Below, piece by piece: positions 1,489 to 14,083 of a DNA stretch of 35,354 nt. Made by a program: the position numbers and the translations under genes. Source of the stretch: a virus (Duplodnaviria; Caudoviricetes); IMG/VR virus record IMGVR_UViG_3300011437_000017, positions 1-35,354 of that record, one strand, 5' to 3'. Under the pieces are notes generated by a model. That model had not been told where the DNA came from. It saw only the letters and a program-made list of their open reading frames with translations, and made no database searches. How positions within the stretch are numbered: the stretch's first letter is position 1; each line of letters opens with the position of its first letter.

Positions 1489-1998
1489 TTAATGTATTGT
1501 TAATGCTTTAAAATACATCAGGAACATATCTTCAGCCATTCTCGAAGTCAAAAACTCTTTGTATTCTCTATTTTGGTCAAAAAGCATTATCTCATTCCAT
1601 TCCCTTTCGAGCATGGCGTCATCTATAAAAGCTATTTTCATGCTCATCGGAAACTCGAAATTAAATTTTTCAGATATAACTTTCATGAGATTGTACTCCA
1701 ATTTTCTATATTGCGGAATAAGCCCTTTAATTGGTCTCGGAATGTCCATGAGATATGCTTCACTCGCGTCATGAAGTAGAGCCGAAAGCTTATCTTCTTG
1801 TTTGGCGAGTTCCATACATCGAATAGAGTGTTCTGCGACAGAATAAAATCTTGGCAGATGCCCACCGAATCTACACTGCATCGAAAGCGAGTGAGCTATA
1901 TCCTCAATGCAAATCATTTCTGGTGTTGGGTTAAGAACATTCACGTAAATTCCAGTGAATGTTCTTATGCAATTTGGTTCAAATAAGTTTTCTTTCAT
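1489..1998 (-). CDS. HD-domain phosphohydrolase (YfbR/5'-deoxynucleotidase-like)
   Basis: IEDIAHSLS..CRFGGH..FYSVAEHS..LLHDASEAY.MDIPRPIK motif series. Confidence 0.9.
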   Translation of the reverse strand: MKENLFEPNCIRTFTGIYVNVLNPTPEMICIEDIAHSLSMQCRFGGHLPRFYSVAEHSIRCMELAKQEDKLSALLHDASEAYLMDIPRPIKGLIPQYRKLEYNLMKVISEKFNFEFPMSMKIAFIDDAMLEREWNEIMLFDQNREYKEFLTSRMAEDMFLMYFKALTIH

Positions 1999-2495
1999 GA
2001 TGCTGCGTATAAGAATTCTTTCATAAATCGAGGCAGTGGTTGATCGTTTAAGAACCAGTCAGTAAGTCCAATTTTGTCTTTCCATATCAAGACTTTTGGG
2101 TTCTTTGCTTTCTGTGTTTCCTTGAACGTCGCCATGAAAACGTAGGATTTTCTCTTTAAATCAGGACGCTCCTTTAAAATGATAGAGACGCATTCTTTAA
2201 CAGTCATAAACCGATTATTTTCTTTGAGGATTTCCTGGATTCTGTCAATCCATCTGAAAAATACCTTTGGCTTATGTGGTTGTTTTCTAATAGTAGCTTG
2301 CGCACCGATCAACTCTGAAATAGCCTGTTTATTTTCGTCTATTTGAGCTTTGAGAATATCGACCCTGTACTTCTGATCATTGTAGTCTTTTTCAAGCTCT
2401 TTTAATGTAGGGAGTCGAGTCGTTAGTTCTTTGCCGAATTCTATGATCTCTGTTTCCAGGATGGAGATTACCTTTTGCTTTTGCCTGCTGTTCAT
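1995..2495 (-). CDS. Coiled-coil plus putative winged-HTH protein
   Basis: N-terminal heptad coiled coil, basic linker, then WIDRIQEILKENNRFMTVKECVSII (wHTH-like start). Confidence 0.55.
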   Translation of the reverse strand: MNSRQKQKVISILETEIIEFGKELTTRLPTLKELEKDYNDQKYRVDILKAQIDENKQAISELIGAQATIRKQPHKPKVFFRWIDRIQEILKENNRFMTVKECVSIILKERPDLKRKSYVFMATFKETQKAKNPKVLIWKDKIGLTDWFLNDQPLPRFMKEFLYAAS

Positions 2496-2496
2496 G

Positions 2497-2736
2497 TTAT
2501 TGTAGTTTATGTTTTAAATACTCATTAAATGTCTTTTTATTAATAATGCCATGCTTGATCTTGTCATTAATAACTTTTGTTACTTTATCCTGCATTGACA
2601 CAGATGCTGCTCTTATATCGAGAACGGTATTTCTGTCATACTTGGTGTCTTTTAATGCTATGTCGCAATCTGTAATAAATGCTTCTAAAGCCATTTTGGT
2701 TACTGCGAATTCTCTTGCCGTGATAATCATTTGCAT
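2497..2736 (-). CDS. Hypothetical helical protein (paralog of 2740..2979)
   Basis: Tightly packed ORF; shared TxxExAxxxMALxxFI motif. Confidence 0.7.
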   Translation of the reverse strand: MQMIITAREFAVTKMALEAFITDCDIALKDTKYDRNTVLDIRAASVSMQDKVTKVINDKIKHGIINKKTFNEYLKHKLQ

Positions 2737-2739
2737 AGT

Positions 2740-2979
2740 TTAATTTTTAGGGAGTACGTATTGGTTTTCTTCTTCTGGAGTCATTGGCTCTAACTTTACA
2801 GTGGTGCCTAAAAGCTGAATCATTTTTTCTTTTGCGGAAGTGGCTGTTTGTATCATTTCCAGGATTAGCCCCTTTGCTTCTAACGTGAAGGGCTCTTCTT
2901 CAAGCCCCTGTTCAGATACTTCGATGAATGACAGTAAAGCCATCTGAATGATAGCTGCTTCGCCTTTTGTAAGTTTCAT
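2740..2979 (-). CDS. Hypothetical helical protein (paralog of 2497..2736)
   Basis: Tightly packed ORF; shared TxxExAxxxMALxxFI motif. Confidence 0.7.
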   Translation of the reverse strand: MKLTKGEAAIIQMALLSFIEVSEQGLEEEPFTLEAKGLILEMIQTATSAKEKMIQLLGTTVKLEPMTPEEENQYVLPKN

Positions 2980-2980
2980 A

Positions 2981-3172
2981 TTACTTGTTTTTTTTGTTTA
3001 AAAAATTGCAAATAGATAAAGCTATTGCTCTGCCATAAACAATAGCGACTTTTATATTATTTTGTCTTATATAATATACTTCTTTTTTGCCTTTTTGAAA
3101 AACCTCGTACATATTACTTGTTTTTAAATGTGACATTTTTGTAGACTCCGTATTTCTCTGCCAACTCAACAA
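2981..3172 (-). CDS. Small hypothetical protein (true start probably MYEVFQ, ~3112)
   Basis: Fills the gap between 2979 and 3114. Confidence 0.5.
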   Translation of the reverse strand: MLSWQRNTESTKMSHLKTSNMYEVFQKGKKEVYYIRQNNIKVAIVYGRAIALSICNFLNKKNK

Positions 3173-3299
3173 TAGATTGAGCTATTATGTAGCAATGAGG
3201 CATCATAGACATTGCCACTATTAATTTAGCGATAAACTCCTTTCGCTCCCTGTCAGAAAGGGTTAGATACGATTGTAGCTCCTGAGTTTCCATTTCCAT
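3114..3299 (-). CDS. Hypothetical protein
   Basis: Overlaps the primase 3' end; helical small ORF. Confidence 0.55.
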   Translation of the reverse strand: MEMETQELQSYLTLSDRERKEFIAKLIVAMSMMPHCYIIAQSIVELAEKYGVYKNVTFKNK

Positions 3300-5433
3300 A
3301 TGTTCTATTTATTTTTTTTATCTGCCATTTCTTTTTTACACTGCCATATTCCTTAACAGCCTTGCTTTCAAATCCCTGTTTACTTAACTGCTTTCCAATT
3401 GCATCAATAGATAATCTTTGATTTGTCAGCATCTCGATTTCAACCTTGATTTCTGAAGCTGTCATCATTTCATCTGGATTTTCATTAGTATAGTACTTCA
3501 TCAATAACTCTCTTTCTAATGTTACAGCCTCGAATTCAAACTCATGAGTACGTAGGTACGTAATATCATCGCCGAGTACAGTCCAGTTAAATCCACTTCT
3601 CCACAAAAAATAAGCTTCCTTAAATAATTCTCGTTTTTCTATTGAATTATACAGCTTGTGATTTATAGCTTTTACATTTACTGGAATTATCCGCCTATTT
3701 TCATTATCTCTAAGAATATTTTTTGTATTAGTTGTTGCACATAAACAAGCTAATCTACCTAATGATACGTTTATTCTACCATATGGCTCTCGTAAGTCAA
3801 ACCATTGCTTAGACGTTAATTCCTTTAGCCGCTGCTCTTCCTTTTTACTCTTTCCACTCATTTCGTCATCCATTATAAACCACTTCTGAGTCATTAGGAT
3901 TTCGTCATCTTTTCCAGCATCAAGTTTACTCTCCGCATAATACTTTTTCATTTCCTTTGGTAATAACCTGCGAAACCACTCTGTTTTTCCAGTCCCATGT
4001 TTCTCACCAGATAATACAAACATCAAAGGAGAATGTTCTCCAAAAGCGCAAGATATAGAACCAACCAACCACTTCTTGAAAAAGTAATTTGTAAACTCTG
4101 GAGCATCATTAATTATAGATTCAGACATCTTGTCAATTAATGGACTCTTAAAGCTTTTATCTTCTTCATATTCATTATCAAATTGAGATAAAAATCTAGT
4201 TATTGGATTATAACCTGCAACATAGTCAGACATTATAAGCCGCTCAAATATATCATAACTTAAGTTATTAAGTACTTTTTTTGCGGCAATATACATAGTA
4301 TTCAAGTCTCGCTGTTCCAATTGTTCACCGCCTACCTTTTCAATAAACCTACTAATCACGTTTCGTTCTAGTTTATAATTAGCAGACATATACAGTTCAA
4401 GCTGGTCGAGAATTGAGTCTCCGTCGCCCATAGAAACTGCATTGTCAAATACCTCATCAATTACAGACTCAACTCCTTTTATATCCTCTTTAGCAAGTAT
4501 CTCCGCAATTTGCTTCTTACCCAATCCAGCAACTTTCGAGTTAATGATAACTCGTTTTATCTTTTGCGTTTTTTCAGAAGATATTTTAACTCCAGCTTCT
4601 TTACAGTAATAATAAAACGTAGAAATCGTTGCAAGCTTAAGTGTTGCAGTTCTTTTTATCGAATAGTTAAACTGTTTGTCAGTTCGCAATCTCGAATACT
4701 TTTCCGATATTGATGAGATCACATGGTAGTATTCTCTTCCGCCCTCACCGAACTTATCAGCAAACGCAAATCCTATCTTAACCCACCTATCATAATCATC
4801 GCACAGATTTATTCTTTTTGTGGAAACCTGTTGCAGTATTTCTTTAAAATCGTCTTGCACATAAGCGAAATTAAGTATCTTTTCTACCTTAATTTCCTTT
4901 ACATATTGTAAGAACATTGGCACCTCAGTATCAGATATGTAAATATTTGGGTCATAGGTAACACCAAAAGGCTTACTTACGCTAATACTCTGTGGGTCGC
5001 ATATCTGATTATAGGTTTTCAATAAGTAGTTTGCCAAACCTAGATACGACTCCCTATGTTTAAGAGGATTGACTCTAAACAACGTAGTCAGTCCATGCCC
5101 ACCGCTTGACAAGAAGCAGGCATAAGCATATTTATCATTCTTCATTAGCTCCTTGACGATTTCAGGTTCTTCCAAATCGTCAAAGTCGATTGCTATATAT
5201 CCACTGTGCTCAAGAAGGCTTGCGTTCTCCCGCTTCGCAAATGTGCCTGAGAACGTAACCCTATTCAGGCTTTCCTTTAATTTTTTGTAGATTTTTTCAT
5301 CTTTTTCATTTCGTAGTTTATGTATCAGGTCTTCGTATCTTCCATCACGAACTTCTATTAGGTACGCTTCGAGGGGAAAATTTCCCTTAGGCTCAGTATT
5401 ATAAACTGAGCCAAACAGTGAAATTACTGACAT
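3253..5433 (-). CDS. Primase-helicase: BT4734/VirE N-terminal domain, PriCT-2, VirE/VapE P-loop domain
   Basis: TFSGTF..SGYIAIDFDDL..SSGGHG (VirE_N); YDRWVKIGFA..GREYYH (PriCT-2); Walker A GEKHGTGKT, Walker B IMDDE, LREPYG, CATTN, NRR. Confidence 0.9.
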   Translation of the reverse strand: MSVISLFGSVYNTEPKGNFPLEAYLIEVRDGRYEDLIHKLRNEKDEKIYKKLKESLNRVTFSGTFAKRENASLLEHSGYIAIDFDDLEEPEIVKELMKNDKYAYACFLSSGGHGLTTLFRVNPLKHRESYLGLANYLLKTYNQICDPQSISVSKPFGVTYDPNIYISDTEVPMFLQYVKEIKVEKILNFAYVQDDFKEILQQVSTKRINLCDDYDRWVKIGFAFADKFGEGGREYYHVISSISEKYSRLRTDKQFNYSIKRTATLKLATISTFYYYCKEAGVKISSEKTQKIKRVIINSKVAGLGKKQIAEILAKEDIKGVESVIDEVFDNAVSMGDGDSILDQLELYMSANYKLERNVISRFIEKVGGEQLEQRDLNTMYIAAKKVLNNLSYDIFERLIMSDYVAGYNPITRFLSQFDNEYEEDKSFKSPLIDKMSESIINDAPEFTNYFFKKWLVGSISCAFGEHSPLMFVLSGEKHGTGKTEWFRRLLPKEMKKYYAESKLDAGKDDEILMTQKWFIMDDEMSGKSKKEEQRLKELTSKQWFDLREPYGRINVSLGRLACLCATTNTKNILRDNENRRIIPVNVKAINHKLYNSIEKRELFKEAYFLWRSGFNWTVLGDDITYLRTHEFEFEAVTLERELLMKYYTNENPDEMMTASEIKVEIEMLTNQRLSIDAIGKQLSKQGFESKAVKEYGSVKKKWQIKKINRTYGNGNSGATIVSNPF

Positions 5434-7849: not shown

Positions 7850-8542
7850 TTAAAATAACGAAATCTGCTCGGCATCAAAAGCGGTAGGATAGTTAGACCA
7901 GATAGCCTCAACGGTTTTCTTAACAGTTCCATTTAACTTAACAACAGGTTTGAATGGCATCCAAGTAGCATTAGTATTCTCGCAAATAATTATCTGTCCA
8001 TTTCTTTCTTTGCACCATTTGGCTAGATATGAGTAGCTAATGTTATGGCACACATAGTGTTCTCCGCCTTTTTGATAAGGCGGGTCTATAAACCAAGTCG
8101 CCTCATCATTCGGCAATTCATAGTATGTACCTTCAACAATAGTCCAATGCCGTATCTTTTCTAAACAACTTGCAACATACTTTTTTCTCGAGTCCATATC
8201 ACCATCAGAAAACTCTGTTACAGTTTGACCTGGTGCTGCCGCCGAGGTCTGACAAAAGAATCCGACTAACCAAAACGCTTCATCACAGTCAAAATCCTTT
8301 CGCTTTATGACATTTCCTTTTGAAAGATTTGGTAAACTCATTATGTCTTTAATAGAACATTTCTGAAGCCATTTCCATAATCTGGCTACAACTTCGTACC
8401 TATCACACAAAGTTACATCATGTTCCCAGTGATGAAGAGAATAGGCAGCCGCTCCAGCGAATGGCTCAATAATTTTTTTAAACTTTGGATGAGGATATCT
8501 CGGAGCAAGTAATTTCTTCGTTCCATAATAGGACCAACACAT
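7850..8542 (-). CDS. DNA adenine methyltransferase (Dam/D12-class); start re-assigned to MCWSYYG at 8542
   Basis: SYYGTK, IIEPFAGAA (motif I), FIDPPY (motif IV); a hairpin occupies the longer 5' extension. Confidence 0.88.
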   Translation of the reverse strand: MCWSYYGTKKLLAPRYPHPKFKKIIEPFAGAAAYSLHHWEHDVTLCDRYEVVARLWKWLQKCSIKDIMSLPNLSKGNVIKRKDFDCDEAFWLVGFFCQTSAAAPGQTVTEFSDGDMDSRKKYVASCLEKIRHWTIVEGTYYELPNDEATWFIDPPYQKGGEHYVCHNISYSYLAKWCKERNGQIIICENTNATWMPFKPVVKLNGTVKKTVEAIWSNYPTAFDAEQISLF

Positions 8543-8561
8543 AGGCAATAATTTAGTTTTT

Positions 8562-8590
8562 AAAAAGCCGAAGGGTAGAAACCCTCTGGC
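8562..8590 (-). terminator. Terminator-like hairpin with T-TTCT-A loop (copy 1)
   Basis: GCCAGAGGGT-TTCT-ACCCTTCGGC-TTTTT. Confidence 0.65.
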
Positions 8591-8620
8591 TAAATTTGAC
8601 ATAATAAAAATTCATGAATC

Positions 8621-8689: not shown

Positions 8690-9268
8690 TTAAAACGGCA
8701 GATCGTCTACCCAATCTTTTGACTCTATTTTTGATGCAACTACTGTAACATCTTCTTCGCGAGACCATTCGAGTTCTTCGCCATTACCAATAATCTCTCC
8801 CCTTGCTTCGACACCTTCCGGTACTCTCTGCTTAATGAATCCCAATCTACCGTACTTATCAACTTCCCCATCAGGTAGCATAAACAAAACCATTTTGAGA
8901 TAGATCGCTCCAGTTTTTTCTGAAACATGAAGCCAATCTTTGTTAATTTTTTTAAGGTCGATATCTAAATCAATGTATCGCCTCTCTTTTTTAGCCTGAT
9001 TAATTCGTTTAGGCTGCTTTTTTTCACCGTTTGCCATAGTTTTAAACTTGTTTTTTATTGAAGAATTGTAAAATGAGCCGAATGATCTTGCAATAGAAAA
9101 ATCCATAAATGTTTCAAGCGGAACTGCCATGTATTGATGAACAGTTTCGTTTTTGAAACATAAGGATAGGGTTTCGTTATGTGCATCGTACCTTATTAAA
9201 GTAATGAATGATGAGCGTTGTTCATCTATCCAAATAGTGAATATTCCGTTGTCAACCGTTTGCCTCAT
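8690..9268 (-). CDS. KTSC domain fused to putative single-stranded DNA-binding protein
   Basis: SSFI..IRYD....L...F.....Y..VP...F.....S.GSFYN..IK (KTSC); C-terminal part ends in the SSB-type tail DDLPF. Confidence 0.75.
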   Translation of the reverse strand: MRQTVDNGIFTIWIDEQRSSFITLIRYDAHNETLSLCFKNETVHQYMAVPLETFMDFSIARSFGSFYNSSIKNKFKTMANGEKKQPKRINQAKKERRYIDLDIDLKKINKDWLHVSEKTGAIYLKMVLFMLPDGEVDKYGRLGFIKQRVPEGVEARGEIIGNGEELEWSREEDVTVVASKIESKDWVDDLPF

Positions 9269-9473
9269 TGCCTATTTGTTTAAAATTAGATTTCTTGCCA
9301 TTGTGATAGAAAGATGCAGTTACGAAGTTCTCGTGATGTTTTTTCTCGCACTTGAAATCAGTTACGTTAATAAATGCACCTCGAGCATACGCTTCAGTTC
9401 TTTTAAAGAAATCAAACACATCAACTGCGCTTGCGTCTGGGTGTAAATCGAGTTTTAGTTCTACTTTTTCCAT
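9252..9473 (-). CDS. Hypothetical protein
   Basis: Packed ORF overlapping the next gene. Confidence 0.6.
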   Translation of the reverse strand: MEKVELKLDLHPDASAVDVFDFFKRTEAYARGAFINVTDFKCEKKHHENFVTASFYHNGKKSNFKQIGNEANG

Positions 9474-9476
9474 ATA

Positions 9477-9950
9477 CTAAAAAGGTAAATAAAGCTCTTG
9501 CGTTTCTTTTAAATATTTTTCAAGTATCCTTTCGTCGGTATAGATAACATCTACGCTAACTCCGTTACGCCAAAATGCTGTAGGTCCTTCAACTGAATTT
9601 CCTATGTACAAACATTTGCTTTTCGGTTTGCAAAAGCTTAAAACTAAGTAGTCGAGTAGTTGTTTCTTCCCGCCCCTCATGTTCATCTTTTCAGGTTTCC
9701 CTTTTAGAGAAGTCCACAGGAGAATAAGTTCAACACCATTCTCGACTACTATGAATTTTTCGCAGTTTCCGAGTTGCTGCATATACTTATTAGCATTAAA
9801 TATCAGCTGATGATCGCTTCGTGAAAACAGCATTTCCCTTTTGAAATCTCCGTTTTCAAACAAAGCAAAACTATACTTTTTCCTAAAGTCGAATTCCTCA
9901 TTCTGGGATACGAATCTTACGGAAAAATCATTGTACTTGCATTCTCTCAT
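9477..9950 (-). CDS. Hypothetical protein ending QELYLPF
   Basis: 157-aa ORF in operon. Confidence 0.7.
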   Translation of the reverse strand: MRECKYNDFSVRFVSQNEEFDFRKKYSFALFENGDFKREMLFSRSDHQLIFNANKYMQQLGNCEKFIVVENGVELILLWTSLKGKPEKMNMRGGKKQLLDYLVLSFCKPKSKCLYIGNSVEGPTAFWRNGVSVDVIYTDERILEKYLKETQELYLPF

Positions 9951-10185
9951 CGTTAAATACTTCTTTAGGTACTCTATCGAATATTTCTTTCAAGTCGTTA
10001 TACACAGACTTAGCTGCGAACTTGCCATTTTCGATCTGTTCCACAAAAGAAAATAATGCTACGAATAATTCTGGCGAGAGTTCAATCATCTTGTCTCTCA
10101 GGATATCGTCAGTACCAGCCATTACACAGATGAGCTCACCTGTTTGCATATCTATAATATGCCCGTTAACTTTAGCCCACTTCAT
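9928..10185 (-). CDS. Hypothetical phage protein (LIAAAPELLEAL-like family)
   Basis: ICVM...MIELSPELFVAL resembles a widespread small phage protein motif. Confidence 0.65.
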   Translation of the reverse strand: MKWAKVNGHIIDMQTGELICVMAGTDDILRDKMIELSPELFVALFSFVEQIENGKFAAKSVYNDLKEIFDRVPKEVFNDERMQVQ

Positions 10186-10200
10186 CTTATTATTGTTTTT

Positions 10201-11106
10201 TTATTGTTCGTAATAAATCGTCCTCATGTTATTTAAATAGTTTCTACACGCCTTAACAACTAATGGTATGCGTGAGATATACTCCTCATCTCTTGCAATA
10301 GGTATCTCAATGATACGTCTATTGATAGGAATATCCGAGTATGTTAAATTCTTTTCAACTTCAGCCAAAGCCTCTTCAAGCATCGAGTCGCTTCCTACGA
10401 AGCTATATGCGACCATTTTCTTTTCATTTTCAATCAACTTGGCTGGAGTATCTAACAAAGTGTAAACCAGTTTAGACTTTGGCTTATCCCACAATCTCAT
10501 ATATCCCTGCATATTAGGAAAATATGGATTAGTTAAATTTTGGTTATCAAGATACTTTATATTACGATAAAAAGTCCAAATATCCCATGACGACTTATTG
10601 TCATATATAGTATCGTCTTTGATATAATCTATCTCTCCCATAATGAAGCCATCGTCTTTTCGCTCAATGTTTTTCTCCGGCAACCAACCTTTGACAATCC
10701 CATAAGCGATGATACCAGAGTCTTCCATCTGAAGTCCTTTCTCGATATATTTGCTTCGTATATCTTTAGTGGATCTTCCAAACTCGTGACTAATCCATAC
10801 ATCGGTAAGGTGTGTCTTACAACCATCAGATAGTTCAACATCATCTATATTTTTTTTGAGGTTATCGCAAGCATCTTTTTGCATTTGGTATAAATCAAAA
10901 GCATCATTCACTTGTTTTTCCTTTTTATCTGCCGTTAAAGTTTCTTTATTTTTAATTGCAGCATACTCCTCATTAAGTTTTTCATACTTTTGATACGTCG
11001 TAAGATATTTTACACGAGTTTCTTCGTACAAATCCTTTGCAAAAGTAGCTCCAGCCATTATGTGCGTAAGGGAACTCACCCTGAATAAGTGGTTATCGTA
11101 GTTCAA
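10201..11106 (-). CDS. YqaJ/lambda-exonuclease-like PD-(D/E)XK nuclease
   Basis: FRVSSL..IM; KG..MED; GEID...YDNKSSW; Y...MQGYM; adjacent to the putative recombinase. Confidence 0.8.
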   Translation of the reverse strand: MNYDNHLFRVSSLTHIMAGATFAKDLYEETRVKYLTTYQKYEKLNEEYAAIKNKETLTADKKEKQVNDAFDLYQMQKDACDNLKKNIDDVELSDGCKTHLTDVWISHEFGRSTKDIRSKYIEKGLQMEDSGIIAYGIVKGWLPEKNIERKDDGFIMGEIDYIKDDTIYDNKSSWDIWTFYRNIKYLDNQNLTNPYFPNMQGYMRLWDKPKSKLVYTLLDTPAKLIENEKKMVAYSFVGSDSMLEEALAEVEKNLTYSDIPINRRIIEIPIARDEEYISRIPLVVKACRNYLNNMRTIYYEQ

Positions 11107-11375
11107 AGTATTATATTTTTAATTTCTATTAAATCGTCATTAAAGGTAATAGTCAATGGTTGTTCTGGTATTTTATCAATTATTGCTTTAAGTCTCATAA
11201 GCTTTCTCATTTGTATATCAGCTTCGAAATCATTCTGAACTTCACAGAAAAAATCTTTACCAAACAATGATATTTTTCCTTTTGTGGCAATGACTTTAAC
11301 GTCTACGTCTTCATAAGTTATTAAACCAAGTAAATAAATATTAATCTTTTTACTACTAACGATTATCGAGTTCAT
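11103..11375 (-). CDS. Protein resembling isolated domain I of the beta sliding clamp (DnaN)
   Basis: N-terminal IIVSS and C-terminal IPEQPLTITF...IEI recall Bacteroidota DnaN domain I (recalled as MKFIVSS...PEQPLTF...IEI). Confidence 0.55.
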   Translation of the reverse strand: MNSIIVSSKKINIYLLGLITYEDVDVKVIATKGKISLFGKDFFCEVQNDFEADIQMRKLMRLKAIIDKIPEQPLTITFNDDLIEIKNIIL

Positions 11376-11547
11376 TTAGTTTCTCTCCGCATTCAGGGCA
11401 GTAATTAATTTCTATTGATGTATTGAATGATGAATCTGTGCTATAAGCATCGTAACTTATTTCTAATATATTTGAAGTTATAATAAGTCTTAGTCCAGAT
11501 TCTTCAGTATCAAATTCTTTAGATTTTTTGCAATAATCACAACTCAT
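11356..11547 (-). CDS. Small zinc-finger protein (start MSCDYC)
   Basis: CDYC...INYCPECGEKL; ATGA overlap at 11544-11547. Confidence 0.75.
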   Translation of the reverse strand: MSCDYCKKSKEFDTEESGLRLIITSNILEISYDAYSTDSSFNTSIEINYCPECGEKLNELDNR

Positions 11548-12422
11548 TTTTTCTCCTTCTCTTTTAATTTTGCGAAACACTCATCATAGCACACTCTCTG
11601 CTCATTTGTTTTGAGCTGACTTTTGAATGACTCTAATTGAGCTATTGTCTCGCAACGGGTTAAGGTTAAAATCAATCTGTCTTCTTTTGGTTTTTCTTCT
11701 TCCGGCGCTTTTCCTCTAAAAGCGAGGTCGACAGTCGTATCACCTTCTTTGATAGCTGTGTCAATGCCTGCAAGTGTTATGAGGTCATCTTTGGTAATAA
11801 ACTCTGCTGCTGCTTTGCCGATTGCTTTAAGAATTTCTTTTTCTGTGATGCCATATCTGTCTTTTAAAGTTTCGATAGCTTTTTTACGAGCCAACATTAG
11901 TTTTTCTTCGGTAGATACGTCGCCGATAATCTTCTTCTGTGCAGCAATGTACACTTGGTCTACCCAAACCTTTGGTATGACAGCGAAGATTGCGTTTCTC
12001 AATGCTATCGAGTTAGCAGCATTGCCTGTAACCACAATCATGTCATCATTGAATCTTCCCTCGCGTCCCCAAATTGATCGCTTAACTTGAATCTTTACAG
12101 ATACATTTGTCTCAATATCAAACGCAACTGCTTCGCTCGTAAGTGTGCGATTCTCGATATCAACAACTCTTGCAGCTGACCTAAAGTTTCCCCAGAACTG
12201 CATAATAATCTTTGCGAGATTGATACTTGGTCCTGAAATCTTTTTTGCTCCACGAGGAACTGTGTAGACACAACTCTCAGCTATGTCTGTCGAACGAAGA
12301 ACGGTAGCTATCGCATTGTCAATTGACTTGCTCATATTTCGAGGATAAGCTTTCGCTGTCGCAATCTGACTGTCAATGAGCGCTTTCTCGCCTTCGTAAA
12401 TTTGTAGTGTTTCACTTGCCAT
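11544..12422 (-). CDS. Putative ssDNA-annealing recombinase
   Basis: QIATAKAYPR..Y.VPRG...I.GPSI.LA..WGN..A.SIALRNAI motif family; located next to the YqaJ-like exonuclease. Confidence 0.6.
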   Translation of the reverse strand: MASETLQIYEGEKALIDSQIATAKAYPRNMSKSIDNAIATVLRSTDIAESCVYTVPRGAKKISGPSINLAKIIMQFWGNFRSAARVVDIENRTLTSEAVAFDIETNVSVKIQVKRSIWGREGRFNDDMIVVTGNAANSIALRNAIFAVIPKVWVDQVYIAAQKKIIGDVSTEEKLMLARKKAIETLKDRYGITEKEILKAIGKAAAEFITKDDLITLAGIDTAIKEGDTTVDLAFRGKAPEEEKPKEDRLILTLTRCETIAQLESFKSQLKTNEQRVCYDECFAKLKEKEKK

Positions 12423-12425
12423 ACT

Positions 12426-12644
12426 TTATATGTATTTTAAATTTTTAGTTTTCAATCTCCTTGCGCCAACTTCAGCCATGCAGTTGAAACATTGTTCATC
12501 ACAAGGGTAATATTCCTGGTTAAGTATCTTTCTGCCCTCTTCTGTATCGGTTATCCCTTTTTCCAAACAATACTCCCATGCTTCATTCCATTCATCAATA
12601 GAGAAGTCAAGTGCTGTCAGTTTACCACAATAGAAGTGAGCCAT
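12426..12644 (-). CDS. Small Cys-rich hypothetical protein
   Basis: HFYCG...CDEQCFNC possible metal site. Confidence 0.65.
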   Translation of the reverse strand: MAHFYCGKLTALDFSIDEWNEAWEYCLEKGITDTEEGRKILNQEYYPCDEQCFNCMAEVGARRLKTKNLKYI

Positions 12645-12645
12645 G

Positions 12646-12978
12646 TTAAATTTTTACTATTTCCAATCCTTCTATATCCAGAAAATCCTCGATTTCCCAG
12701 TCGTTAGTTATAATGATTATTTCAGGTCGCTCCATAGATATTCCTTCTCTTCCGTATGGAACTCGTACAGCAACCCTTTTCTGAGACACAAACCTTTTAA
12801 GTTTAGCCAAGTCCCTAACCAAAAGAGAATTGTAGATTATTACGCAAGGTTCTCCATCATATTCTCGTGGGTCAATGTCTACATCATCAGCCCAAATTAC
12901 CCTTTTACCTTTTGCAAGTTTTAGAGCTTCTAATCCGCGACCTACGGAATTGCCAGAGACGAGTGTAACTTTTTGCAT
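12646..12978 (-). CDS. Degenerate P-loop (SF3/VirE-like) domain protein
   Basis: VTLVSGNSVGRG, VIIYNS, LKRFVSQ..V.VRVPYG, IIIITND follow the layout of SF3/VirE ATPases, without catalytic residues. Confidence 0.55.
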   Translation of the reverse strand: MQKVTLVSGNSVGRGLEALKLAKGKRVIWADDVDIDPREYDGEPCVIIYNSLLVRDLAKLKRFVSQKRVAVRVPYGREGISMERPEIIIITNDWEIEDFLDIEGLEIVKI

Positions 12979-12999
12979 TTGAATTATTTTTAGTTTTTT

Positions 13000-13031
13000 A
13001 AAAAAGCCCCTAAATGTAGAAACATCAGGGC
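13000..13031 (-). terminator. Terminator-like hairpin with T-TTCT-A loop (copy 3)
   Basis: CCCTGATGT-TTCT-ACATTTAGGG-GCTTTTTT. Confidence 0.65.
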
Positions 13032-13071
13032 AGATTCAATCTAAATCAAAAAACATGACAAATCAAATATC

Positions 13072-13338
13072 TTAACTTATTTCTTTTGTGGTAAAGTAAG
13101 CACCAGTAATGTGTTCGTCTATTATATGTTCAACCAAAATAGCAAACTCATCCCAATCAATTATTCTCGCTTTATCGAGATTAATATTATTAGCTGATAG
13201 ATGATACATTGCTATGTCTCCAATGAATCCAGTAAATGTAGCATTTATCTCCACAAAAAGATTAAACTGCTTTCCGCCCTTAACAAGATGCGAAGGTACA
13301 TTGATAAGTACACTAAATGTCTTTACTGGTTGTTCCAT
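13072..13338 (-). CDS. Hypothetical protein (start MEQPVK)
   Basis: The ATG start reduces overlap with the upstream gene. Confidence 0.6.
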   Translation of the reverse strand: MEQPVKTFSVLINVPSHLVKGGKQFNLFVEINATFTGFIGDIAMYHLSANNINLDKARIIDWDEFAILVEHIIDEHITGAYFTTKEIS

Positions 13339-13510
13339 CTGTAATAAGTATTTTACCAAAAAATAAGCACCAACCGGCACATGAGATAAGCATTACAGTA
13401 TTCCATCCGAGATCTTTGTTCTCGACTTGATAGTGGAAAGCTATTCCGCCAACCAAGATTGCGTATGCTATAACGAGTACTCCAATTGCTCTATTAAGTA
13501 TCTTTTTCAT
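13313..13510 (-). CDS. Small two-TM membrane protein
   Basis: Two hydrophobic segments: AIGVLVIAYAILVGGIAF and VMLISCAGWCLFFG. Confidence 0.65.
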   Translation of the reverse strand: MKKILNRAIGVLVIAYAILVGGIAFHYQVENKDLGWNTVMLISCAGWCLFFGKILITDGTTSKDI

Positions 13511-13554
13511 GAGCGACCTCTGGGTTTGAACCAGTTAGTCCTAATACAGCCGCT
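13511..13554 (-). ncRNA. tRNA-like mini-structure (acceptor stem plus T-arm)
   Basis: AGCGGCT...CTGG-TTCAAAC-CCAG-A-GGTCGCT-C. Confidence 0.4.
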
Positions 13555-13561
13555 TCCTAAC

Positions 13562-13702
13562 TTACTTTTTGTTTTTTAAGAGTTCAATAATTTGTTTTTG
13601 ATTTTTTAAGAATTCGCCTATATCAAAAGCCCAACGAATAAAGGCGATAGCAATAATAAATACGAAGATATACACTCCTGCTGAAATTAAAAAACTGTCC
13701 AT
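13562..13702 (-). CDS. 46-aa single-TM membrane protein (not in ORF track)
   Basis: MDSFLISAGVYIFVFIIAIAFIRWAFDIGEFLKNQKQIIELLKNKK*. Confidence 0.65.
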   Translation of the reverse strand: MDSFLISAGVYIFVFIIAIAFIRWAFDIGEFLKNQKQIIELLKNKK

Positions 13703-13720
13703 AGTATATTGGGTTTTAAA

Positions 13721-14083
13721 TTAATAAATAAATTGACTTGCTTTGCAGATCACTGCATTGCCATAAATAAACATTTCTTCATTTCCAGGAAGCTCTATTA
13801 CTACTGCGCCCATTGATTTCATTTCAGAAAGGAATCTTTTCGATTCGGCTTTTATTTCGTCTGTGTAAATAGTCTGATAGATTTCAGTAGCCATTTCGTT
13901 CTTGACTTTGTTTGGTTTTACCGCTCCAGACTCATCTACAATCATATAGTAATTGTCTGGAAGCTTAATAACTTGAACTAAATCGCAGCCAATCATTTCG
14001 TTTAATTCTTCGCACCAGAAATCGCTGCCATTCTTCGGCTTAATTGCTTTTGTTTTGCCGTTTGTACTAATTAAAAGAGCCAT
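13721..14083 (-). CDS. DUF3846-like protein
   Basis: EL..MIGC..VQ...MIVDESG...N..AT...IYGNAVI. Confidence 0.75.
   Translation of the reverse strand: MALLISTNGKTKAIKPKNGSDFWCEELNEMIGCDLVQVIKLPDNYYMIVDESGAVKPNKVKNEMATEIYQTIYTDEIKAESKRFLSEMKSMGAVVIELPGNEEMFIYGNAVICKASQFIY

Follow-up and report, generated by a model that had tools for sequence, protein, structure and literature searches.

What might a bacteriophage gain from one third of a sliding clamp? The window analysed here, by which we mean the whole 35,354-nucleotide stretch of viral DNA (IMG/VR record IMGVR_UViG_3300011437_000017), encodes a 90-residue protein, P0001, that a preliminary description had read as a stand-alone, shortened domain I of Bacteroidota DnaN. 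That reading is borne out both by the fold, as seen in an AlphaFold2 model and in structure searches, and by sequence profiles, and we turn here to where the gene sits, what of the clamp has been kept and lost, and what a lone clamp domain might do during infection.

A two-gene insert at a variable position

The P0001 gene is read from the minus strand, starting at an ATG at 11375 and ending in ..IEIKNIIL*, and the plus-strand frame over the same positions is broken by stops. The 90-aa ORF and the N- and C-terminal sequences first quoted for it are present as described, except that the protein extends five residues past the quoted end. The ATGA overlap said to couple the gene to the downstream exonuclease proved to be misplaced: the exonuclease ORF opens with a TTG at 11106 and overlaps the P0001 stop as TTGA (its homologues begin at the same point, but with ATG), while the ATGA sits one gene upstream, at 11544-11547, where the ORF of a conserved 292-aa protein meets that of a zinc-ribbon protein. 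The zinc-ribbon ORF overlaps the start of the P0001 gene by 20 bases, and the P0001 and zinc-ribbon genes have GC fractions of 0.26 and 0.29, against 0.35 and 0.41 in the flanking genes. Together they form an AT-rich two-gene insert, with the 292-aa gene on one side and the exonuclease on the other (Table 1). The surroundings of P0001 are a recombination/replication block. A 41,740-base metagenome contig shares 12,270 bases with the window at zero mismatches and carries the same 90-aa ORF and stop; it may come from the same sample, and is therefore a partial guard against a local sequence slip.

The 292-aa phrog_3657 protein is encoded directly upstream of the exonuclease in every close relative, and 46 GenBank phage records have it. 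Because its gene adjoins the exonuclease, we regard it as a candidate single-strand annealing protein.

The P0001 gene is accessory. Eight loci were collected on the basis of the exonuclease, six of them from close relatives with 60-84% exonuclease identity, and the family gene is present in none (0/8); four of the eight records, one of them complete, were searched further for the family, and it was not found. In one relative (L001) the 292-aa gene and the exonuclease gene overlap directly with nothing between them, and in two others (L002 and L006) a different 92-aa ORF occupies the slot, which is thus variable. A functional tie of P0001 to the neighbouring exonuclease was considered and rejected, as 6/6 close relatives are without the gene at that position.

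Table 1. Coordinates of the features discussed, each in the numbering of its own record.
Record	Feature	Coordinates	Strand	Remarks
Window	P0001, stand-alone DnaN domain I derivative, 90 aa	11103..11375	-	Predicted strands 1-7 and two helices
Window	Zinc-ribbon ORF	11356..11547	-	Likely ATG at 11547; phrog_1494, E 1e-14
Window	Conserved 292-aa protein	11544..12422	-	Upstream flank; phrog_3657, unknown function
Window	Exonuclease	10201..11106	-	Downstream flank; phrog_5715, E 1.9e-32
Window	Variable slot	11103-11547	-	Between 292-aa gene and exonuclease
Window	Deoxyribonucleoside 5'-monophosphate phosphatase	1489-1998	-	phrog_318
Window	DNA methyltransferase	7850-8602	-	phrog_56
Window	KTSC-domain fusion protein	8690-9268	-	PF13619, E 2e-14
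Window	Tail-region protein, 663 aa	15840-17831	-	Weak sialic-acid acetylesterase (SASA) match, E 1e-4
L002	92-aa ORF in slot	3736-4014		
L006	92-aa ORF in slot	3695-3973		
L009	P0033, family member	1663-2202	+	Cysteine-rich extension
L015 (G001)	RecA	8819-10051		N-terminal extension
L016 (G001)	Prim-Pol/helicase	2192-4303		
L016 (G001)	GroEL-like chaperonin	12377-13942		

Predicted fold and relationship to DnaN

From the single sequence of P0001, AlphaFold2 returned a pLDDT of 37; with a 15-row alignment it returned 89.8, and the model has a pattern of two helices and seven strands. When the model was compared with 48,161 chains, the first 12 rows were beta clamps (Z 10.4-9.2, rmsd 2.1-2.5, 86-88 residues aligned), the top row giving Z 10.4 and rmsd 2.3 over 87 residues, and non-clamp natural folds reached Z <=3.8. 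The best pairwise match was to domain I of the clamp 8dt6 (Z 10.7, rmsd 2.2, 85 residues aligned). Foldseek against the PDB gave no row under E 0.001, and the rows listed were all sliding clamps, the best at E 0.002 and TM 0.73. The profile and structure searches that had been proposed as a check have thus been run, with beta clamps heading the fold ranking and DnaN domain I heading the profiles, and P0001 is predicted to adopt the clamp-domain fold. The E. coli clamp, however, matches the model through its domain III, and domain identity is therefore decided by sequence rather than by fold.

Profile-profile alignment with hhalign gave 97.7% to DnaN residues 1-101, and it spans the whole length of the protein (87 columns), where the match had earlier been thought to rest on the two ends. 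On eight Bacteroidota-type DnaNs the family profile scored 28-32 bits over domain I and under 10 bits over domains II and III, so that the portion bearing the peptide pocket is not covered by the family; on E. coli DnaN domain I it scored -0.7 bits. Among 7,996 proteins scored, the longer ones at E<=10 were full DnaNs in 13 of 13 cases (best E 0.09), one of them named as Chitinophagales, and against the PDB the Elizabethkingia (Bacteroidota) clamp was the top of three matches, albeit weak (E 0.16). In the reverse direction, a profile built from four Bacteroidota-type DnaN domain-I sequences gave P0001 16.0 bits, a score reached by 0 of 2000 shuffles (best shuffle 11.0), in a control that is not fully independent and is biased toward shared motifs because it was the family profile that had picked out the comparison DnaNs. 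The 48,161-chain search, the family-profile PDB search and the pairwise match to 8dt6 are free of that selection bias. P0001 alone has no match in Pfam, with PF00712 absent even at E<=1, and nothing relevant among PHROGs or PDB sequences. Across the 16 family members PHROGs gave no family common to them, and PF00712 matched faintly in 1 of 14 other members scanned (12.9 bits against a cut-off of 24.4). In a tree the family and DnaN fall apart, though the split is weakly supported (85/67), and no donor emerges.

Overall, these sequence comparisons support the derivation of P0001 from Bacteroidota DnaN domain I. With that domain (PF00712; Elizabethkingia 8dt6; Chitinophagales P0019) it has in common the predicted fold and the motifs IxxSS, E, L and QPxT. 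At the same time, P0001 is itself no beta clamp: it is a single domain, where DnaN has three per chain, its model ends before strand 8, and it has no peptide pocket.

A clamp domain has eight strands, and it is at the last of these that the P0001 model stops short. Its alignment reaches only as far as residues 103-104 in the Rickettsia and Helicobacter domain I, residue 108 in 8dt6 domain I, which by sequence alignment is two short of the F106 equivalent, and residues 354-356 in domain III of E. coli, where the last strand has yet to begin. The model contains no strand at residues 87-90, and in each of the 16 members the distance from the QP motif to the C-terminus is 18-22 residues. Strand 8, the carrier of R103, R105 and F106, is thus predicted to be lost, or to survive at most as a three-residue hydrophobic stub. 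These residues belong to the contact by which DnaN subunits pair, an inter-subunit sheet with a core of I78, F106, I272 and L273 and with ion pairs involving K74, R96, R103 and R105, as set out in the available part of PMC11139829. Since a basic residue occurs within the last five positions in only 2/16 members, the R103/R105 ion pairs appear to be lost as well. What the tail has instead is a hydrophobic-x-hydrophobic pattern followed by the stop, with positions -3 and -1 hydrophobic in 16/16 and the middle residue, polar in the DnaNs examined, hydrophobic in 14/16. The tail could alternatively form a tight hairpin carrying a three-residue stub like F106-S107-L108, a hairpin that is absent from the model.

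The rest of the domain has been kept unevenly. Columns I5, Q72, P73 and T75 are identical to DnaN P0019 in 16/16 members each, and identity to DnaN is found for S7, E45 and L62 in 15/16, for E84 in 12/16 and for K3 in 11/16. All 16 members have hydrophobic residues at the interface-helix positions that correspond to I78 and L82, and 11 have a basic residue at the K74 equivalent. Mean column identity reaches 0.72-0.75 in strand 1 and the EQP-strand 6 but only 0.26-0.39 in strands 2-5 and the loop. Compared with DnaN, the loop that follows helix 1 is shorter, as is the hairpin of strands 3 and 4, and helix 2 is three residues longer; in P0001 helix 2 is K/R-rich. The calculated pI of family members is 4.3-6.7.

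Family members and carrier phages

A search of 1.84 billion representatives with P0001 returned nine hits, namely P0001 itself, six short proteins and two long repeat proteins (P0008 and P0009), the last two being dropped as unrelated. A profile search added eight further members and a locus scan one more (P0032), for a total of 16 stand-alone members of 88-99 aa, close pairs included, in about 11 lineages; P0005 is counted without its first 44 residues, a probable start miscall, and outside the three carriers whose genomic context was seen the term stand-alone rests on database gene calls. Members are about 25-40% identical to P0001 and, at 16-17 sequences, lie mostly on single short contigs. 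The seventeenth, P0033, is without the hydrophobic tail and runs on in frame into a cysteine-rich extension, about 80 residues long, in which CxxxC and CxxC motifs occur; its contig, L009, showed no frameshift that would restore the tail, and the hydrophobic tail is therefore not universal. The P0033 gene has a YspA/SLOG gene on one side and a probable terminase on the other.

The three loci seen (this phage, the complete 78-kb phage G001, and L009) have no common neighbours. In G001 the family gene lies among small ORFs, and the phage also encodes an N-terminally extended RecA, together with a Prim-Pol/helicase and a chaperonin of the GroEL type. Locus scans of viral contigs with P0001, P0016 and A10 gave no locus, and with A9 only a contig already in the set, while family locus scans gave none in genome contigs, none in plasmids and none in GenBank phages at a useful E. 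A tblastn search with DnaN domain I against GenBank phages gave 75 records, whatever the extent of the matching gene.

The nearest primases to that of the window come from phages of Cellulophaga, Nonlabens and Flavobacterium. Where a host is named, the best capsid matches are mostly to Flavobacterium or Leeuwenhoekiella phages, so the host of the window phage is probably a member of the Bacteroidota; no host genome or prophage carrying the locus was found in genome contigs. The window record is 85% complete and G001 100%. Neither has a match to A-, B- or C-family polymerases (PolA, PolB, DnaE) or to clamp-loader families, controls being positive in both searches, and neither yielded a full clamp or a domain II/III elsewhere, the domain II/III search having been run without a positive control. 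Since a replicative polymerase, a full clamp and a loader are absent from both carriers searched, these phages probably depend on host Pol III and DnaN, within the limits set by the Prim-Pol of G001 and the unseen 15% of the window record. Phage lambda is reported to increase DnaN and thereby aid its own replication (10.1101/2024.10.31.621285, in the portion available), and carriers that likely run on host DnaN would likely pay a price for shutting the clamp off.

Elsewhere in the window, a DNA methyltransferase and a deoxyribonucleoside 5'-monophosphate phosphatase are encoded, and the 663-aa tail-region protein is possibly a capsule-modifying tail protein. The KTSC domain is fused to a C-terminal part ending in DDLPF, an ending that we take to resemble an SSB tail, and this protein is kept in L002-L006. 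The promoter motif TAnnTTTG is not enriched (47 observed versus 45 expected).

What a lone clamp domain might do

The reading we put first, tentatively and aware that it may well be wrong, is that P0001 is a one-domain derivative of DnaN domain I, without the subunit-joining strand, that imitates the outer rim of the host clamp and serves as a freely diffusing decoy for it. Of the roles suggested in the preliminary description, a decoy fits best, and we favour it because the residues kept identical to DnaN cluster on the sheet that forms the rim. The tail would cover the helix-2 residues that in DnaN are covered by F106 and the partner subunit, and the domain so covered would be stable alone and unable to extend a ring. 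Columns K3, I5, E45, Q72-P73, T75 and E84 would lie together in one patch on the rim, on the sheet made by strands 1, 6 and 7, the outward facing of I5, T75, E84, E45 and K3 being deduced from alternating strand patterns; the same residues could also be conserved for folding alone. Made early, P0001 might then soak up a host factor that recognises the clamp rim. That factor could be a translesion polymerase or a subunit of the loader, or else a toxin or defence protein directed at the clamp, and the host clamp would thereby be left free for a phage without a polymerase of its own.

Partners of this kind are on record. In E. coli the clamp rim, next to which the proposed patch would lie, binds Pol IV/V through E93 and L98 (PMC3022782), and not far from the patch the loader subunit gamma-2 docks on domain I near the interface (PMC11436948). 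In the family the L98 column holds E and the E93 column is variable, so what binds the rim in E. coli may not bind here. A decoy for the clamp loader was set aside as the main reading, part of the gamma-2 site appearing to lie on the missing strand, and the loader is kept as one candidate partner.

There is a smaller but appreciable chance that the fold has been recycled, and that a DnaN-derived domain now binds itself, as a tail-to-tail dimer, or some unrelated host or phage target, its link to clamp biology gone. The divergence of the members from P0001, the shortened helix 1 loop and strand 3-4 hairpin beside a lengthened helix 2, the three loci without common neighbours and the hydrophobic middle residue of the tail would all be at home in such an account, but specific DnaN residues are near-invariant over some 11 lineages, beyond any obvious need of a scaffold.

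We consider it unlikely that P0001 is an interface cap, in which helix 2 and a short tail strand would bind the edge of domain III that is exposed when host DnaN is open or monomeric, and so block ring closure. Capping of host DnaN, raised in the preliminary description, survives as a possibility, in that the dimer-facing half of the domain (strand 1 and the EQP-strand 6) is the conserved half, the I78 and L82 equivalents stay hydrophobic (which fits the decoy equally) and the K74 equivalent is mostly basic, and the tail can be read as a hairpin with its F106-S107-L108 stub. The available texts add that domain I reportedly loses its fold where the interface has opened (PMC11139829) and that L82 matters for the dimer interface (PMC12269063), and precedent for phage clamp inhibitors exists in Gp168 of phage Twort, a small phage protein that acts on the clamp system, as a cap would, by occupying the DNA channel of the host clamp (PMC8565349). 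Against this, the model stops before the last strand of domain I, the tail residues that would restore the R103/R105 ion pairs are gone, the host dimer holds together with picomolar affinity (PMC11139829), and the carriers searched are without a replicative polymerase. P0001 has no sequence or fold match to Gp168, the structure 7evp having been matched through its clamp chain. Unlikely to a similar degree is a chain-terminating subunit that would dock on the domain-III edge as the loader opens the ring and, having no working far edge, would stop closure; if true, this would be a clamp-made clamp inhibitor that hits the dimer interface and neither the pocket nor the channel.

That the gene is a decaying, functionless host fragment is very unlikely, for its accessory status and rarity would fit decay, but divergent members have their start and stop at fixed places, columns that do not vary and a confidently predicted fold, which would not. 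Least likely is the oligomeric mini-clamp suggested at the outset, six copies placed head to tail in a ring serving phage replication or the neighbouring exonuclease, which the K/R-rich helix 2 and the recombination/replication setting would suit, but which needs for its pairing a strand 8 that is absent or a stub and a strand 4 that is shortened, and against which stand the loader and polymerase not found in the two carriers, the relatives whose similar exonucleases go without the gene, and the calculated pI values.

Regardless of how P0001 acts, the family is real, small, derived from Bacteroidota DnaN domain I and apparently undescribed. In the available text of Kazlauskas and Venclovas (2011, PMC3201878), 5/12 phage polIII-beta homologues are short, and all of these comprise domains II+III; like P0001 they are truncated, phage-encoded, host-derived pieces of the clamp with a putative function, and P0001, in covering domain I, is their complement. 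Comparable in layout are phage proteins auto-annotated with PF00712 (ESM Atlas clusters of 102-107 aa; BFVD A0A6J5L0N7, 123 aa), also single N-terminal clamp domains and mostly viral, but they are 12-33 residues longer and Pfam-detectable, and for that reason may keep strand 8. A single-domain phage clamp is thus already annotated in databases but, as far as we found, not studied: full-text searches, which did not reach most subscription journals, returned no paper on a domain-I-only phage clamp.

Truncated phage clamps described so far retain the domain II/III pocket, whereas the P0001 family retains the pocketless domain I, trimmed at a fixed point immediately ahead of the strand that closes the ring. 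If such a piece is under selection, then domain I must by itself have some partner that it pays a phage to imitate or to block in infection. To name that partner would be to find either a factor of the host, perhaps one of its defence proteins, by which the clamp rim is read, or an interface-directed mode of clamp inhibition, and the dimer interface is a site unused by pocket-directed antibacterials. P0001 would, in addition, offer a natural soluble single clamp domain for studies of how the ring evolved.
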